Assembly: GCA_965648905.1 (NCBI GenBank)
Contig: CBFGIT010000027.1
Coordinates: 1 to 34,589, forward strand
Direction of reading: 5' to 3'
Source of the DNA: a candidate division WOR-3 bacterium
GTDB lineage: Bacteria; Hydrothermota; Tepidihabitantia; Tepidihabitantales; Tepidihabitantaceae
Length of the DNA: 34,589 bases
Positions 533 to 8,602 of the stretch are shown one piece after another. The notes under the pieces were generated by a model. That model was not told the origin of the DNA, ran no database searches, and was given only the letters and a program-made list of their open reading frames with translations. Position numbers and translations under genes: made by a program. Position 1 is the stretch's first letter, and every line of letters starts with the position of its first letter.

Positions 533-1267
533 ATGGAGATTGTGAAGGCTCTGCCCGGCGTGAGCACTCCGGTGGTTCTGCTCTGCTTGCTGGGTGTCGT
601 GCTCTTTCTCGTTCTTCTCGTTGTCCTCATCATCTTCGTGGTGCAGCGACGTGAGCTGAAAGTGCTGCTGCCGTTTTTCTTGCTGCCGATTGTCATGATT
701 GGCTGGCCGACCATCCAGAGCATCAAGTTTGGGAGCGACATCGAGGTAACCAAGACCGCCGCCGACCAAATCAGGTCCGGACAGGCCACCCCAGACCAGG
801 TGGCCGAGGTCGAGAAGAAGGTCGGTGAGCTTGAGGCCCGAAGTAACGTCACCACGGAACAGAAGATGGTGCTCGTAAACGCACGTGAGAGTATCAGGAA
901 GTACCGGTTCGACCGGGCGCTGGCAGCGGCAACCGAAGCCGGAGTTCCAACGGAATCGCTCGCCTCAATCATCACGTCTGCGACCACGCTGGCCCGTACA
1001 CCTGAGGAGAGGGCCGCGGTCCATGACGTGGCGATTCGCGTTCAGGAGAAGGTGCTGGCTGCGGCCGACTCGGTCCTTCGGCACGTTGAAACAACCACCG
1101 GACACCTTGCTCCCGAAGACCCGGCACGTGCCATCATGGCGACTCGACTGGATTCACTCAACATGGTACTGAACCAAGTCGACGCCCTTCCCAAGACACC
1201 GGAACAGCGCGAGAAGAGCGACCTGATGCGTCTCAGAAATGCAAGGCTCAAATCTCAAATTCACTAG
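533..1267 (+). CDS. Hypothetical membrane protein (two N-terminal hydrophobic helices, helical soluble domain)
   Basis: 244 aa ORF, strong SD GAGGAGGT before ATG, two hydrophobic stretches; no family recognised. Confidence 0.8.
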   Translation: MEIVKALPGVSTPVVLLCLLGVVLFLVLLVVLIIFVVQRRELKVLLPFFLLPIVMIGWPTIQSIKFGSDIEVTKTAADQIRSGQATPDQVAEVEKKVGELEARSNVTTEQKMVLVNARESIRKYRFDRALAAATEAGVPTESLASIITSATTLARTPEERAAVHDVAIRVQEKVLAAADSVLRHVETTTGHLAPEDPARAIMATRLDSLNMVLNQVDALPKTPEQREKSDLMRLRNARLKSQIH

Positions 1268-1316
1268 GCAGAACCAGAGACCGGCGCGGCTTCGCCACGG
1301 GCTGCGCGCCTGTGCC

Positions 1317-1345
1317 TTGACACAGCGCCGGGCTGTTCGTAGCAT
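1317..1345 (+). promoter_or_regulatory. Sigma70-type promoter, probably leaderless transcript
   Basis: TTGACA (1317-1322) - 17 bp - TAGCAT (1340-1345), 6 nt before ATG 1352; no SD. Confidence 0.65.
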
Positions 1346-1351
1346 TGGGTG

Positions 1352-2014
1352 ATGAAGTTTTCTCAGTCTGTTCTTGCTCTTTGTGCCTTGGCCGTGCTTT
1401 GCCTACCTGCCTTCGCCGGGAAGACCCCGGATTCGCTCTTGAACGGCTCTTTCTCTTCTCCGCTGACCAATGGCTGGCAACAGGAGGCGCGCGACTTTGT
1501 CGGCTATCACAACATCGCCCTGCTCAAGGATGGCGGGGTCAGGGTCGTCAAGGAGATGTGCGGTCGGGCCCGGCTGTTTCAGGAAGTCAACCTTCCGGAC
1601 CTGAACCGAACCTTCTCTGCCCGGGTGCAGTTCAAGGCCCAGTCGACCACGCCCGGCTACTTCTCGTATGGTGCACTCATGCTGCAGTTCGTCGACAGCA
1701 CGGGTAACACCCTGGCCGAGACCCGGTTCTACAGTGCCGCGGGCATGCTGCCGTGGAAGAACACAAGCCGACTACGGCTTGTGCCCGTGGCCAAGTCGGG
1801 CACATGGACCGATATCTCGCTCAATCTCGCCGATGAACTGAAAACGAACCTGAAGGACGTTCACCGGACCGAAGTGAAGGGCCTGAGGGTCGTGATCGAG
1901 GCGTTCGGCTCAGGTCGGAGCGGCTGTTGAGGGCTCTATCTGGGGGCAGAGGTCTCTGCCCGCTATGTTAAGCTTTCTACCTCGGTTACAAACGATTCCA
2001 AGAAGGGTAGCTAG
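1352..2014 (+). CDS. Secreted beta-sandwich/CBM-like hypothetical protein, candidate selenoprotein (TGA 1928-1930 read as Sec; ends at 1930 if not read through)
   Basis: Signal peptide MKFSQSVLALCALAVLCLPAFA; LLNGSF..GW N-terminal motif typical of CBM4/9-like domains; ...SGC-TGA-GLYLGAEVSARYVKLS... stays open to TAG 2012-2014; SECIS-like hairpin. Confidence 0.7.
1944..1961 (+). promoter_or_regulatory. Putative bacterial SECIS element
   Basis: Stem GGGCAGA/TCTGCCC with GGTC loop, starting 13 nt after the in-frame TGA. Confidence 0.65.
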
Positions 2015-2017
2015 CCA

Positions 2018-3019
2018 TTGACCGGTCGCACATGCCTGAGCCGGACAACTGCTCTGCTTCTGGCCTTGTGCGCGTCTGTATTCGGCTGGTGGGACTTCTG
2101 GCCCTACACCGAACACCAGAACTTGGTCTCGCGCTCAATTGACATCTGTGCCGAGCGCTACCCGGACATGGCTTCGGAGATAGTCGCGTACCGGGCCGAG
2201 CTCAAGTCCGGGGTTCACGACGAAGACTTTGACTCCGACGAAGTCAACGGCTCGTACTGCGACTATTCAGGTTACTCGCCGGCCGTGCCGGGCGCGTGGT
2301 GGCCGACCGCACGCCGACATCTGACCGCCATCCAATGGGTACTCGATTCGCTCAACCCGAACAACTGGACCGCAGCGGTCGTCAGGTACGCCTCAAGCAA
2401 GGCCGACGCTTACAACATGCTCGGTCACATCGTCCACAACCTACAGGATTTGTTTGTCCCGGCCCATTCGCACATCTCCCCTCACGGTCTGGGCACTGGC
2501 GGCCTGGTCGAGAACCACTCCTGGCCGGCCTACTTTGACAACTTCGAGCAGTACTGCGAGGTGACCGACAACGAACTCCGGCTTGCCCGCGCTGACCGCA
2601 TTCCCGAACTGGCACTCGAGACCCTGATGGTGCGAGCCGCGGTCTTCTCAAACACCGACGCTGAGTCGGCCGGGTTTCTGCCGAGCGAGTACTACGCCCA
2701 TCCTGACACTGCCGGCGGTTGGGGCAGGTACCGGCCCTATCCTTCGGGCGGCTATCCGTGCGGCCGGGACCGAATTGACAACGCGCTGGCCGATGCCTGG
2801 TCGTTCTGGATTGTGCCGACGTGCTGTGAGTATGGGGCCGCAGCGCTGCGAGAGTTCTACCTTGCCTGCAATCCGACCGCGGTCAAGGAACAGGCACCGG
2901 AACCGACCCGTCCCCTGACCCGGCTCTACGATGTTCTCGGCCGCCGGGTAAGTCCGAACTCTACCCGACCCGGCGTGTACTTCACGCGCAGCGGCAAGGC
3001 CCTGCGTCTTCAGCCCTAG
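2018..3019 (+). CDS. Secreted zinc-dependent phospholipase C / S1-P1 nuclease-like protein with T9SS-like C-terminal tail
   Basis: Signal peptide, mature N-terminal W...H, GHIVHNLQD..VPAH and H...FE metal-ligand motifs; tail LYDVLGRRV...PGVYF; TTG start uncertain. Confidence 0.65.
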   Translation: MTGRTCLSRTTALLLALCASVFGWWDFWPYTEHQNLVSRSIDICAERYPDMASEIVAYRAELKSGVHDEDFDSDEVNGSYCDYSGYSPAVPGAWWPTARRHLTAIQWVLDSLNPNNWTAAVVRYASSKADAYNMLGHIVHNLQDLFVPAHSHISPHGLGTGGLVENHSWPAYFDNFEQYCEVTDNELRLARADRIPELALETLMVRAAVFSNTDAESAGFLPSEYYAHPDTAGGWGRYRPYPSGGYPCGRDRIDNALADAWSFWIVPTCCEYGAAALREFYLACNPTAVKEQAPEPTRPLTRLYDVLGRRVSPNSTRPGVYFTRSGKALRLQP

Positions 3020-3762
3020 CGGAACAGGCTGAAGCGCAGCTTCAGGTAACGCTCCGGATTCTCCCGGAAATCCTTGACCAGAGTCTGCAGTTCGGCGTTG
3101 GTCTTGCGCACCTCGTCATAGAGCTCGGAGCTGGAAATCAGCTTACCCGCACTCGACTCGCGGCTGATTGACTGGACCAGGGTATCAAGCCTTGCCGATA
3201 ACCGGGTCAACTCGACCGACGCAGTCGAGAAGCTGGTGTTGAATCCGGTAAGCTGGGCTCTGACGGTCTGCATCAGCTCATCGCGCAGCCCTTTGAGCTC
3301 GCCGGTCAACTCGGTCGGGTTCAGACCCCCAAGCAGCCGGTCGAGTCGCAGGAATGTCTCCTCAAGGTCGAGCGCCTCGTTCGCGCCCTGGAACCGGTGA
3401 GCATCCGGCGCAACCGGCCCGGTCCCGGGCACGACCATCACGTACCGGTCGCTGCCCAGGTAACTGACCGACCGAATCGCGAACCTCGTGTCAACCGCCA
3501 GTGCGACATCGCGGTCCAGAGCCACGGTCGCCCGCACCTGGCCGTTGTCGAGCGCGAGACCCGCGACCTTGCCTTTGTCTATCCCCAGAACCGAGACCGG
3601 GTCTCCGGCACGGAGTCCGGACGCGTCGCGGAAATAGACCGTGACCAGCCGACGGTGAGCCTGCACCAGCCGGCCCGAAAACCAGACGAATGCAAACACC
3701 GCCAGGGCGATGCCGCCCAAGACAAACAGAGCAACGAGCACCTCACGAATACGCCTGCTCAT
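3016..3762 (-). CDS. mlaD: MCE-family (MlaD) substrate-binding protein
   Basis: N-terminal TM, F.DASGL..GDPV...G...G.V MCE motif, ENPERY tail; ATG 3762 with GGAGG SD. Confidence 0.9.
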   Translation of the reverse strand: MSRRIREVLVALFVLGGIALAVFAFVWFSGRLVQAHRRLVTVYFRDASGLRAGDPVSVLGIDKGKVAGLALDNGQVRATVALDRDVALAVDTRFAIRSVSYLGSDRYVMVVPGTGPVAPDAHRFQGANEALDLEETFLRLDRLLGGLNPTELTGELKGLRDELMQTVRAQLTGFNTSFSTASVELTRLSARLDTLVQSISRESSAGKLISSSELYDEVRKTNAELQTLVKDFRENPERYLKLRFSLFR

Positions 3763-4441
3763 AGTCCTCCTTTCTTGCGTCATCCGCCGACTCAAGCATG
3801 CCGCGTCTGAGCATGTAGAGCCGGTCGGCCACGTTCCGGGCCGCAGCAAGGTCATGAGTGACAACGACCACAGTCCGATGCTGATGGTCGCGCAGTTCCC
3901 GGACTAGCCCCAGCACCCGTTCGCGCATCACCGGGTCCAGACCGGTTGTCGGTTCATCAAAGAAGACGTAGCGCGGCTCTGTGACTATTGCCCGGGCGAT
4001 TGCCACCAGCCGCGTCATACCGCCGGAAAGCACGCGCGGATATAGACTGGAGTTCTCCCCCATGCCAACCAAGTCCAGCGCTGCGGCCACGCGCCGCTTC
4101 ACCTCTGAACCGGGCAGCCGGCCCGTCTCCTGAAGCGGCAGGGCAACGTTCTCCTCAACGGTCATCGAGTCGAACAAAGCCCCGGCCTGAAACACATACC
4201 CGAGTCCGCCGGTCACGCGCTGATTGTCGGAGAACTTGTGGTAGTGCAGGGGTCGGCCGTCGTAGAGAACCCGACCCGAATCGGGCGCAAGCAGCCCGGC
4301 CATGATGCGCAGCAGCACGCTCTTGCCGATGCCCGACGGCCCGAGAATCACCACCGTGGTCTGGTCGGCCACGACCAGGTTCACCCGGTCAAGCACCCGG
4401 ATGCTCCGAAACGCCTTGGACACGCCCTGGACTTCAATCAT
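3743..4441 (-). CDS. mlaF: MlaF-type ABC transporter ATPase
   Basis: GPSGIGKS, VFQAGALFDSM, LSGGM, FDEPTTGLDP. Confidence 0.92.
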   Translation of the reverse strand: MIEVQGVSKAFRSIRVLDRVNLVVADQTTVVILGPSGIGKSVLLRIMAGLLAPDSGRVLYDGRPLHYHKFSDNQRVTGGLGYVFQAGALFDSMTVEENVALPLQETGRLPGSEVKRRVAAALDLVGMGENSSLYPRVLSGGMTRLVAIARAIVTEPRYVFFDEPTTGLDPVMRERVLGLVRELRDHQHRTVVVVTHDLAAARNVADRLYMLRRGMLESADDARKEDYEQAYS

Positions 4442-5178
4442 GTCGAGAAGAACACGAGGGCGATGACGAAGTCGATCATCAGGATGAGCGTAGCCGAAAG
4501 CACGACCGCCGAGGTCGTGGCTCGACCGACCTGCTCGGCACCGCCCGAGACGTTGAACCCGTAGTAACAGCCGCTGATGCCAATGACCAGCCCGAAAAGC
4601 GCGGCCTTGGCCAGCCCGCCGTAGAAATCCCGTACCATGAAGAAGTGGGTCACGCCATAGGTGAAGGTCGAGGGTGCGATATTGAGCAGTGTCGCCGAGA
4701 TGAACAGCGCGGTCATGATGGCAACCACCTCCATCGTGACGACCAACACCGGCAGACCGAACGTCGTGCCGAGCACGCGTGGCAGGCAGAGATACCGGTA
4801 CGGGTCGACCGCCATCACCTCAAGCGCATCAATCTGCTCGGAGACCCGCATCGCGCCGAGTTCGGCCGCAATCGCCGACGCTGACCGGCCGGCAACGATG
4901 AACCCGGTTAGGACCGGAGCCAGCTCAATCAGCACCAGCCGCCCCACCCCCATGCCAACAAAGTACTTCGGCACCACTCCCATCAACTGATAGCTGGTTT
5001 GCACCGCGGTCGTCAGACCAATGAAGACCGAAGTCAGACAGATAATCGGCAGCGCGCTCGCGCCATGAAGGTACAACTGCGCGACAAACCTCGGCCAAGT
5101 CCGTCGCAGGTCATATGACCCGAGCAGAGTCCGGGCGGCAAAGGCCAGGAAGTCAACCGGCGCCGTAAGCGCTTTCAC
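4438..5178 (-). CDS. mlaE: MlaE-type ABC permease
   Basis: ELAPVLT..IVAGR.ASAIAAELGAMRVSEQIDALEVM, VGRATT.AVV. Confidence 0.95.
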   Translation of the reverse strand: MKALTAPVDFLAFAARTLLGSYDLRRTWPRFVAQLYLHGASALPIICLTSVFIGLTTAVQTSYQLMGVVPKYFVGMGVGRLVLIELAPVLTGFIVAGRSASAIAAELGAMRVSEQIDALEVMAVDPYRYLCLPRVLGTTFGLPVLVVTMEVVAIMTALFISATLLNIAPSTFTYGVTHFFMVRDFYGGLAKAALFGLVIGISGCYYGFNVSGGAEQVGRATTSAVVLSATLILMIDFVIALVFFST

Positions 5179-7111: not shown

Positions 7112-8602
7112 ATGCGTCTTGCCGGATTCCTGATTACCGACCCCGAAGCTCGACCCGTGTCCGGGTCGCTGCTTGTTGAGCAGGGCCGAATCGCTGCGGT
7201 CGAGCAGACTCCCGGAACGACGCCTGCTGCCTGGATTGTGCCCGGGCTGATTGACGCCCATCTGCACCCGCTTGAAGTCGGACTCGAACTGCTGTTCGCC
7301 AATCTGGCCGGCGCGAGGACGATTGACGAAGTCCTCGGCCGGCTTGCCGAGCGCCGGGCCGACGCCGCAGAATCAGGCATGATGCTCGGATTCAACCTTG
7401 AACCGGACAAGCTTGTCGAACGCCGCTACCCCTGCCGCGCTGAGCTCGACCAAATCATCGCTGATGTGCCGGTGCTGGTCTACCGGGTTGACGGCCATTC
7501 TGCCGTCACCAACACCGCAGGTCTAGCCCTGCTCTCGCCGCTCAATGCGATTGGTGCCGAGGTGAACAGCCGAGGCGAGCCGACCGGAGTCCTGCGCGGT
7601 CCGTCGTACGAACAGGCTTCACGCCGGTTCAAGCGTCAGCTTCCGGCCGAGGTGGTGCGCGAGGCTCTGCTCCGGTGCGGCCAGCAAGCAGTCCGGCAGG
7701 GCGTGACAACCATCGCCGCCCTCGTCGGCACCGAAGACACGACCGCCGACGAACTCGGGCCCATGCTCGATGCCCTCGCGGCCGGGCCGCTGCGCGCGAT
7801 ACCGTTTGTCCAGACCTGGAACCATGAACTTGTGCTCGAGTTCGGTCTTGACCGGATTGGCGGCTGTCTCCTCATCGACGGCTCCTTCGGCTCACACACG
7901 GCTGCGCTCAACCGTGACTACACCGACGCACCCGGCGGTTCCGGTATGGCATTCGTCACCGATGAGAAGCTGGTCGCGTTCCTGCGCCGCAGCGAGGAAC
8001 TCAAACTCAGCACGGCATTCCATGCCATTGGCGACCGGGCGGTCGAGCAGGTTGTCCGCTGCCACGAGCAGGTCGGCCGGTCGTCACTCCGCCACCGCAT
8101 CGAACACGCCGAGTTGCTCAACCCGGGCCTGATTGAACGCATCGCCCGGCTCGGGCTCGTGCTTGGTGTCCAACCGGCATTCGAAGCAACCTGGGGCGGC
8201 CCTGACCGGATGTACTCCTGTCGGCTCGGCGAACGCTGGCGTCTCACCAATCCCTTCCGCAGTTTGGCCCGAGCCGGGGTCATCCTTGCCGGCAGCTCAG
8301 ATGCTCCGATAACACCGACTTGCCCGCTCGCCGGCATCCGCGCCGCGATCGAGCATCCCAATCCTGAGCAGCGTGTCACCCCGGAACAGGCCTTGGCAAT
8401 GTTCACCCGGAATGCGGCCTTCTCACTCGGGCTTGAACAAGAGGTCGGTCGACTCGCACCCGGGTTCAGTGCCGACCTCACCATCCTGACCGGCGACCCG
8501 CGCACCAGACCCGACTGCCGCGTTGCCGCCACCTGCCATGCCGGCAATTGGGTCTTCAGGGACACAAAGCTGCTCAGGTCACTCGGCTTCGAGCCACAGT
8601 GA
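7112..8602 (+). CDS. Amidohydrolase family 3 (YtcJ-like)
   Basis: PGLIDAHLH, RVDGHS, DGSFGSHTA, HAIGD, HRIEH, SSDAP. Confidence 0.9.
   Translation: MRLAGFLITDPEARPVSGSLLVEQGRIAAVEQTPGTTPAAWIVPGLIDAHLHPLEVGLELLFANLAGARTIDEVLGRLAERRADAAESGMMLGFNLEPDKLVERRYPCRAELDQIIADVPVLVYRVDGHSAVTNTAGLALLSPLNAIGAEVNSRGEPTGVLRGPSYEQASRRFKRQLPAEVVREALLRCGQQAVRQGVTTIAALVGTEDTTADELGPMLDALAAGPLRAIPFVQTWNHELVLEFGLDRIGGCLLIDGSFGSHTAALNRDYTDAPGGSGMAFVTDEKLVAFLRRSEELKLSTAFHAIGDRAVEQVVRCHEQVGRSSLRHRIEHAELLNPGLIERIARLGLVLGVQPAFEATWGGPDRMYSCRLGERWRLTNPFRSLARAGVILAGSSDAPITPTCPLAGIRAAIEHPNPEQRVTPEQALAMFTRNAAFSLGLEQEVGRLAPGFSADLTILTGDPRTRPDCRVAATCHAGNWVFRDTKLLRSLGFEPQ

Follow-up and report, generated by a model that had tools for sequence, protein, structure and literature searches.

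The question raised by this locus is whether an in-frame TGA ends a gene or encodes selenocysteine (Sec). The DNA analysed, hereafter the window, is a whole contig of 34,589 nucleotides (C27; CBFGIT010000027.1 of GenBank assembly GCA_965648905.1) from a 99.6%-complete genome of a candidate division WOR-3 bacterium. On its forward strand, a frame opened by ATG at 1352 runs to GGC-TGT-TGA, with the TGA at 1928-1930. Past this codon the frame stays open for 27 codons (GLYLGAEVSARYVKLSTSVTNDSKKGS) and closes at TAG 2012-2014, and the TTG of the next open reading frame (ORF) lies at 2018. An initial annotation had proposed that the frame encodes an exported selenoprotein of about 220 residues and that a hairpin directs the recoding. 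The ORF, its TGA, the 27-codon extension, the TAG, the stem and the loop were all confirmed on the sequence; the read-through coding sequence (CDS) comprises 220 residues, and its N-terminus reads by eye as a Sec-type signal peptide. In this study, comparison with other genomes indicates that 1928-1930 is very probably a real Sec-UGA within one exported jelly-roll protein, which is a reading of the gene and not of its function. The recoding signals, their conservation and covariation, the decoding machinery and the fold were established by computation; we infer export and a role for Sec193. The gene thus read is the predicted stand-alone Cys-Sec member of a large, uncatalogued family of exported selenoproteins. 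Its recoding mechanism is canonical, and the protein family and cellular location are new.

The elements of the gene, by position in the window, are these:

1352..2014, plus strand: selenoprotein precursor CDS, 220 residues, Sec at residue 193, TAG stop; the read-through is conserved in homologs.
1352..1417, plus strand: predicted Sec-type signal peptide (MKFSQSVLALCALAVLCLPAFA, then GK), read by eye from the sequence.
1433..1978, plus strand: beta jelly-roll domain resembling a carbohydrate-binding module (CBM), 182 residues as modelled, from AlphaFold and structural matches.
1559..1561, plus strand: codon of Cys70 in a K-E-M-C-G turn, conserved across the stand-alone subfamily.
1925..1930, plus strand: TGT-TGA, the predicted vicinal Cys192-Sec193 pair; the TGA column is present in 84 of 87 inspected loci.
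1931..2011, plus strand: 27 post-UGA codons; Leu197-Leu208 form the last beta-strand (conserved AEVSAR[YF]V.L), and the short tail behind it varies.
1944..1961, plus strand: putative selenocysteine insertion sequence (SECIS) hairpin with a 7-bp stem and a GGUC loop at 1951-1954, encoding G-A-E-V-S-A.

The signal peptide would probably be cleaved after A-F-A, and a hydrophobic N-terminus is found in every aligned homolog. Cys70 is a candidate partner of the Cys-Sec pair.

One line of evidence for recoding is that homologs keep the TGA. When 61 genomes of the lineage were searched in six frames with the read-through protein, the family was matched in 53 of them, and eight paralogs were revealed in the genome itself (the window's locus and seven others among the matches). 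Twenty-seven loci were taken regardless of stops, namely the top 20 matches, the window's own locus included, and the other seven own-genome matches. All 27 carry TGA in one alignment column (shifted by a residue in one case), followed by a conserved motif. A further 60 matches were fetched. Forty of these had been flagged as having one TGA, so that they were selected for the feature and test its position only; the TGA stands at the family column in 40/40. The remaining 20 had been flagged as stop-free, and 17 of them have a TGA just beyond the end of the match; of the other three, L179 has a Cys nearby, and L176 and L181 have neither Cys nor TGA. In total, 84 of the 87 inspected loci are carriers of the TGA column, across 25-50% sequence identity. 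In an independent profile search of 61 genomes drawn evenly from the phylum, 15 genomes were matched, and 31 of the 32 matches carry one TGA. The column recurs across at least 28 genera. A single-protein search of a contig collection (genome_contigs) found no related loci.

Homologs with another residue in place of Sec are also informative about the site. At the Sec column P0016 reads S-C-G, against T-U-G in the Sec members closest to it. In P0084/L179 a Cys adjoins the column, and P0047 has Ala in it (G-C-A-E-G-H-C). P0104, P0131 and P0098 span the column without any Cys, and all three of Cys70, Cys192 and Sec193 are lost in P0022, which is of the stand-alone form. The initial annotation had asked for homologs that align past the TGA with Cys or TGA at this position; the homologs do align through it, with TGA at the column, and a few have Cys, Ala or nothing there.

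A second line of evidence is the hairpin. It is formed by the strands GGGCAGA (1944-1950) and TCTGCCC (1955-1961), which enclose the loop GGTC (1951-1954); 13 nt lie between the TGA and the stem, and 20 nt between the TGA and the loop. According to the bacterial SECIS (bSECIS) model given in the review PMC13188914, such an element has a loop of 3-9 nt, a stem of 4-16 bp, a G in the first two loop positions, a UGA-to-loop distance of 16-37 nt and a minimum free energy of at most -7.5 kcal/mol. The hairpin in the window agrees with all of these limits as the review states them (4-nt loop, 7-bp stem, 20 nt, and -13.1 kcal/mol for the 20-nt core), and the core reaches -7.5 kcal/mol or lower in 79/84 family members. 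When 84 family hairpins were aligned in register, the apical loop was GGUC in 78, AGUU in 5 and GGUG in 1, with G and U at loop positions 2-3 invariant. SelB would probably recognise this loop G-U. The UGA-to-loop distance is 17, 20 or 23 nt in all hairpins except L164, which has the GGUG loop and is the sole poor hairpin of the 84.

The initial annotation had named conservation of the hairpin as a check, and over the 84 sequences it is both conserved and covarying. Pair 8/17 occurs as GC (57), AU (9), CG (3) and UA (1); pair 9/16 as AU (36), GC (32) and GU (3); pair 10/15 as AU (60) and GC (10); and pair 5/20 as GC (58), AU (4), GU (3), CG (1) and UA (1). The six core pairs covary, and six of eight pairs change on both sides. 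The observed covariation score was reached by 0/500 shuffles, a count that is not a probability because the hairpin sequences are related. Sliding the 3' partners lowered the pairing from 84% to 26-58%. Since pairs 8/17 and 5/20 both join third codon positions, their covariation indicates selection at the RNA level. Codon choice is biased in the same region: Val is GTC in 78/84 hairpins against 46% genome-wide, and the first Ala is GCG in 68/84 against 30%. The pentapeptide encoded by the stem is AEVSA in 35 sequences, AKVFA in 32 and ARVLA in 12 (79/84), with E coupled to S, K to F and R to L across the stem, as base-pairing requires. The motif A-E/K/R-V-S/F/L-A is thus forced by the pairing of the stem, and it is relaxed in Sec-less homologs. 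The family is an unusually clean case of an RNA signal constraining a protein sequence through paired choices (E/S, K/F, R/L).

A likeness to the fdhF element of Escherichia coli had also been pointed out, and it holds: in the K-12 sequence the UGA is followed, 18 nt on (20 nt here), by the same GGUC loop, on a UGCA/UGCA stem inside the CDS. The two elements differ in that the stem in the window is perfect, with 6-7 bp and no bulged U, and the hairpin dictates a conserved peptide motif. The window's protein is unrelated to formate dehydrogenase and probably exported.

The genome is equipped to use such a signal. The initial annotation had called for the sel genes, and selA, selB, selD and a tRNA-Sec were all found. 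The tRNA-Sec scores 72 bits against a cut-off of 47 bits, with the anticodon tca according to ARAGORN; SelA is present, as is SelB with its wing domain. There are two selD genes (G000:C4:87631-88554 and G000:C8:88040-88942), each with one in-frame TGA, and the second directly adjoins selB (C8:89016-89141); the SelA and SelB frames are without internal TGA. Among the relatives, SelA was detected in 57/61 genomes: the family and SelA occur together in 51, SelA without the family in 6, the family without SelA in 2, and neither in 2 (G014, G039). In two related genomes, family members lie on the same contig as selA and within a few kb of it (G050:C37 and G052:C59); in G050, the family members are at C37:1377-3890 and selA is at 7320-8422. 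In the proposed mechanism, SelB bound to Sec-tRNA would read UGA 1928-1930 as selenocysteine, guided by the hairpin at 1944-1961. The signal peptide would then be removed to leave a jelly roll of about 198 residues resembling a carbohydrate-binding module, with Cys192-Sec193 placed in a loop just before the final beta-strand.

In other members of the family, this Sec domain forms the N-terminal part of type IX secretion cargo proteins. The seven other paralogs in the genome (L031-L037) have a signal peptide and the domain, then a single in-gene TGA, after which about 100-450 or more residues follow in frame before any other stop. Six of the seven extend into a Por_Secre_tail type IX sorting domain, and L035 runs off its contig; two of the six sorting domains score above the Pfam cut-off and the others at 20-24 bits. 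Because a C-terminal sorting signal is sensible only with an N-terminal signal peptide, the frames on either side of the TGA form one gene. The multidomain cargo forms, such as L034 (616 residues), share the N-terminal domain, the TGA column and the GGUC hairpin with the window's protein. The latter differs in standing alone, with neither passenger nor sorting domain (the family scan found no C-terminal Por_Secre_tail in it), in reading C-U-G-L where the cargo forms read G-[G/T]-U-G, and in having its partner Cys in a K-x-M-C-G turn instead of S-S-T-C-W-P. Unlike the cargo forms, it also occupies a conserved chromosomal position. The 640-residue paralogs L037 and L032 (G000:C14, C30), together with P0047, P0104 and P0107, share a central region of about 350 residues. 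Neither Pfam (at E 0.01) nor the PDB sequence search gave a match to this region of the L037/L032-type cargo; cargo of this class has an uncharacterised passenger domain.

The family extends into public protein collections, where its members are usually seen in part. A profile search of 1.84 billion cluster representatives returned 353 relatives at E <=0.001, of which 240 were at <=1e-10. Among the best 150 of the 353, at least 96 end at or just before the Sec column; of the rest, 17 span the column without a stop, 3 are fragments, and in 34 the local alignment ends earlier. Several distant Sec-less homologs have other architectures (P0127, P0136, P0141, P0144, P0147 and P0013). One distant Sec-less group (about 400 residues) is built with another N-terminal domain and places a Cys in the equivalent loop, and one distant Sec-less homolog of 2727 residues has three stretches that match the domain profile.

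The fold was predicted with confidence. With a 26-sequence alignment, AlphaFold gave an all-beta jelly roll with a predicted local distance difference test score (pLDDT) of 96.2 and a predicted template modelling score (pTM) of 0.91. Sec lies in the loop at model residues 160-169, just ahead of the last strand; this strand, residues 170-181 (pLDDT 96-98), is encoded after the UGA, so a product that terminated at the UGA would miss one strand of the sandwich. This bears out the earlier suggestion that the extension supplies the final beta-strand of a CBM-like sandwich. Foldseek and a wide structural search both returned CBM-type jelly rolls (Z 10-13.8), as follows:

5w6h_A: phage tailspike C-terminal domain, Z 13.8.
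8xmz_B: porphyran-binding CBM, Z 12.7.
4d0q_A: hyaluronan-binding module, Z 12.4.
2zew_A, 1gui_A and others: CBM16 and CBM4, Z 10.5-11.4.

The superpositions of 8xmz, 4d0q, 2zew and 1gui (Z 12.7, 12.4, 11.4 and 10.5) cover 123-136 residues with root-mean-square deviations of 2.3-3.1 A. A protein atlas, queried with the TGA-terminated ORF, placed it near the CBM-cenC and CBM_4_9 clusters and gave candidate division WOR-3 as a hint of the taxon. Strands like those of CBM_4_9/CenC modules are present in most subfamilies (N-terminal N-G-D-F..G-W and C-terminal A-D-D-h-x-L). The beta jelly roll is common to these modules and the window's protein, and the Sec loop before the last strand occurs only in the latter. 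Pfam CBM_4_9 (PF02018) matched one of 26 members, at E 0.067, and did not match the window's protein. The likeness to a CBM is one of shared fold and not of family membership.

The protein also appears to be new among selenoproteins. No Pfam or NCBIfam family was found for it, nor consistently for any of the 26 members scanned; none of the 26 consistently matches the NCBIfam selenoprotein models or DUF1573 (PF07610), and PDB sequence searches gave no match. Table 1 of a 2026 review comprises 119 prokaryotic selenoprotein families or subfamilies (PMC13188914), and the whole of that table holds no CBM-like or type IX cargo family. The family is likewise not among the nine new families reported in the deep-Sep paper. 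In the literature on selenoproteins with type IX secretion, WOR-3 or a carbohydrate-binding module, nothing relevant was found (this comparison covered sources other than the BSepDB family list). The initial annotation had recognised no matching selenoprotein family, and this agrees with the 0/26 matches to curated models and with the lack of anything alike in Table 1 of PMC13188914. The entries of that table closest in one respect are HgcA, SaoL, SaoC, MbdU, KCU-star and the DUF1573 "UGC" proteins, which have adjacent Cys-Sec, or Sec in a small secreted beta-domain. Their Pfam/NCBIfam models match 0/26 members, and their folds and contexts differ.

The Gly-Cys-Sec-Gly motif itself had been compared with that of mammalian thioredoxin reductase. 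That enzyme has a C-terminal Gly-Cys-Sec-Gly redox centre, and vicinal Cys-Sec can form a selenenylsulfide. The G-C-U-G tetrapeptide is indeed the same, but nothing further is alike: in the window's protein the motif is internal (residues 191-194 of 220), 27 residues short of the C-terminus, and a beta-strand follows it, the protein is probably extracytoplasmic, and the family scan found no flavoprotein or oxidoreductase domain in it. Moreover, the first Gly varies among orthologs ([G/A/T]-C-U-G), and other subfamilies read G-G-U-G or G-T-U-G.

Several observations weigh against the interpretation as a Sec codon, or against what might be built on it. Judged on one locus alone, none of the three features (TGA, hairpin, open extension) exceeds chance. 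The extension of 27 codons, to which the initial annotation had drawn attention, is present but unremarkable by itself, since ORFs of 300 codons or more in the same genome are followed by a median of 35 open codons past TGA, 35 past TAG and 38 past TAA. The 71-nt fold at the locus has z = -1.96. The 3.0-Mb genome contains 212 GGTC-loop hairpins of at least 6 bp, 13 of them with a TGA at an offset of 17, 20 or 23, and 6 of these 13 meet early stops downstream and look like chance. The SECIS-like hairpins downstream of both selD UGAs are unlike the GGUC hairpin of the family. In an Rfam scan no SECIS family matched the hairpin, the sole match being a chance microRNA. Two genomes have the family but no detectable SelA (G022, 92% complete, and G058, 76% complete). 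Few homologs have Cys, and the fold can do without the site, as both Cys and Sec are absent from it in P0104, P0131, L176 and L181. No specific selenenylsulfide is assignable, because the partner cysteines change from one subfamily to another. Modelling with and without the extension, which had been proposed as a check, yields the last strand in the full form, but the truncated form is nearly as confident (pLDDT 94.8 against 96.2), and structure prediction thus does not discriminate between the two. In the truncated alignment residues 66-71 alone lose their strand assignment, which suggests that in the model they pair with the last strand. Because the single-locus features are at chance, the case for recoding rests on comparison with other sequences, and the comparative evidence raises the feature far above chance.

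Other explanations of the TGA were weighed as well. Were it a true stop, the product would have 192 residues, and the hairpin and downstream frame would belong to a terminator, an attenuator or a small ORF. Gene callers do end the gene at the TGA, the extension alone is no longer than expected by chance, and AlphaFold still folds the truncated form. Against this, the amino acids after the TGA are conserved and form the last strand, the own-genome paralogs remain open for some 100-450 residues or more and in six cases end in a secretion signal, which would be useless if the N-terminal signal peptide were missing, and the stem shows covariation within the codon frame; a T-run is absent, and 1100-3200 gave no terminator-like site. 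A true stop is accordingly very improbable. It is slightly less probable still that a changed code or near-cognate read-through inserts Trp, Gly or Cys. The frame is also open under code 4 or code 25; however, 1998 of the 3588 stop-to-stop frames of at least 200 codons in the genome end in TGA, and TGA acts like TAG and TAA in the extension test, which excludes a genome-wide sense code. The frames of SelA and SelB have no internal TGA and those of selD exactly one, and a complete Sec machinery is present together with a dedicated SelB-type hairpin. A recently inactivated pseudogene, for which a single in-frame stop would be the expected mark of a nonsense mutation, is the least credible of the three. 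This reading is already refuted by the comparative data, as the same TGA column is found in at least 28 genera and in eight own-genome paralogs, and the gene is syntenic in 9/17 ortholog loci.

Given a Sec codon, what Sec193 does is less certain. The favoured role, held tentatively and at somewhat under even odds, is a reactive selenolate or selenenylsulfide centre carried by a binding scaffold and partnered by Cys192 and/or Cys70. Outside the cytoplasm, such a centre would bind a soft ligand, sulfur-containing or other, or exchange with it. Ranked below it is a soft-metal or metalloid site formed by Sec193 and Cys192 on the binding module (e.g., for Hg, Cu, As or a metal sulfide surface), which is possible but doubtful. 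The scaffold is a binding-module fold, and most of the adjacent C-U families catalogued in Table 1 of the review are metal or organometal proteins, examples being HgcA, the MerB-like SaoL, MbdU and a 2Fe-2S protein (PMC13188914). However, Cys stands beside Sec only in some subfamilies, others having G-G-U-G or G-T-U-G; no metal-handling genes adjoin the locus, where the conserved neighbour is a convergent transporter operon; and no metal-binding family was matched in the Pfam/NCBIfam scans. A purely structural role, in which a selenenylsulfide with Cys70 or Cys192 serves as a staple and Sec has no chemistry of its own, comes last of the three and is rather unlikely. All subfamilies with Sec keep one or more further conserved cysteines. 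Which cysteines these are depends on the subfamily: the stand-alone form has Cys70 and Cys192, the G-G-U-G forms have a Cys in S-S-T-C-W-P, and others read C-U-x-x-H-C. The protein is probably extracytoplasmic, where cross-links are common, and the joint loss of Cys70, Cys192 and Sec193 in P0022 would also fit a staple. On the other side, P0104, P0131, L176 and L181 are still family members without Sec or Cys, the position of the partner Cys varies between subfamilies while Sec is kept in 84/87 loci, and a disulfide would do as a staple without the cost of Sec. As Sec-less members often lack Cys too, the fold needs no cross-link and Sec is not tied to one partner.

The surroundings of the gene were also inspected. 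A promoter-like site lies directly upstream:

1317..1345, plus strand: TTGACA, 17 nt, TAGCAT; sigma-70-like, with 10/12 matches, ending 6 nt before the ATG.

Use of this site is a weak lead, and the host lineage may have another promoter type; if it were used, the mRNA would be nearly leaderless. Downstream, an ORF at 2018-3019 (plus strand, 333 residues) begins 3 nt past the TAG of the selenoprotein gene. It is found at this position only here and in a genome of the same genus (L022, 76% identity), and it has no Pfam or NCBIfam match. Three overlapping ORFs of 282, 232 and 246 residues at 3016-5178 (minus strand) are convergent with the selenoprotein gene, and by eye they look like the substrate-binding protein, ATPase and permease of an Mla-type ATP-binding cassette transporter. 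The selenoprotein gene is tail-to-tail with this same operon in 9/17 ortholog loci of other genomes, indicating that it is a vertically inherited ortholog. A search with the neighbouring transporter ATPase gave one close relative (82%), with all others at 48% or lower. The neighbour genes give no functional clue.

Cytoplasmic redox enzymes, mostly of thioredoxin-like fold, make up nearly all of the prokaryotic selenoproteins known so far. In the present case, Sec would be placed in an exported binding-module fold that is multiplied within genomes and fused to type IX cargo across part of an uncultured phylum. The fdhF-like GGUC loop makes the read-through testable in E. coli. Gene callers routinely shorten members of this family at the UGA and split the multidomain members in two; with at least 96 of the best 150 representatives ending there, the surface proteomes and selenoproteomes of these bacteria are mis-annotated. 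A more speculative idea, to which we give only a small chance, is that of a "seleno-lectin", in which the Sec loop turns the CBM scaffold into a module for repeated use outside the cytoplasm, one that would capture its ligand by a covalent bond or by soft coordination; candidate ligands are elemental sulfur or polysulfide, a metal sulfide, or a surface polymer that bears thiols. If so, the module would have been copied onto many secreted cargo proteins, as in the eight paralogs of this genome, and much of the selenium demand of these bacteria would serve the cell surface and not cytoplasmic redox enzymes.

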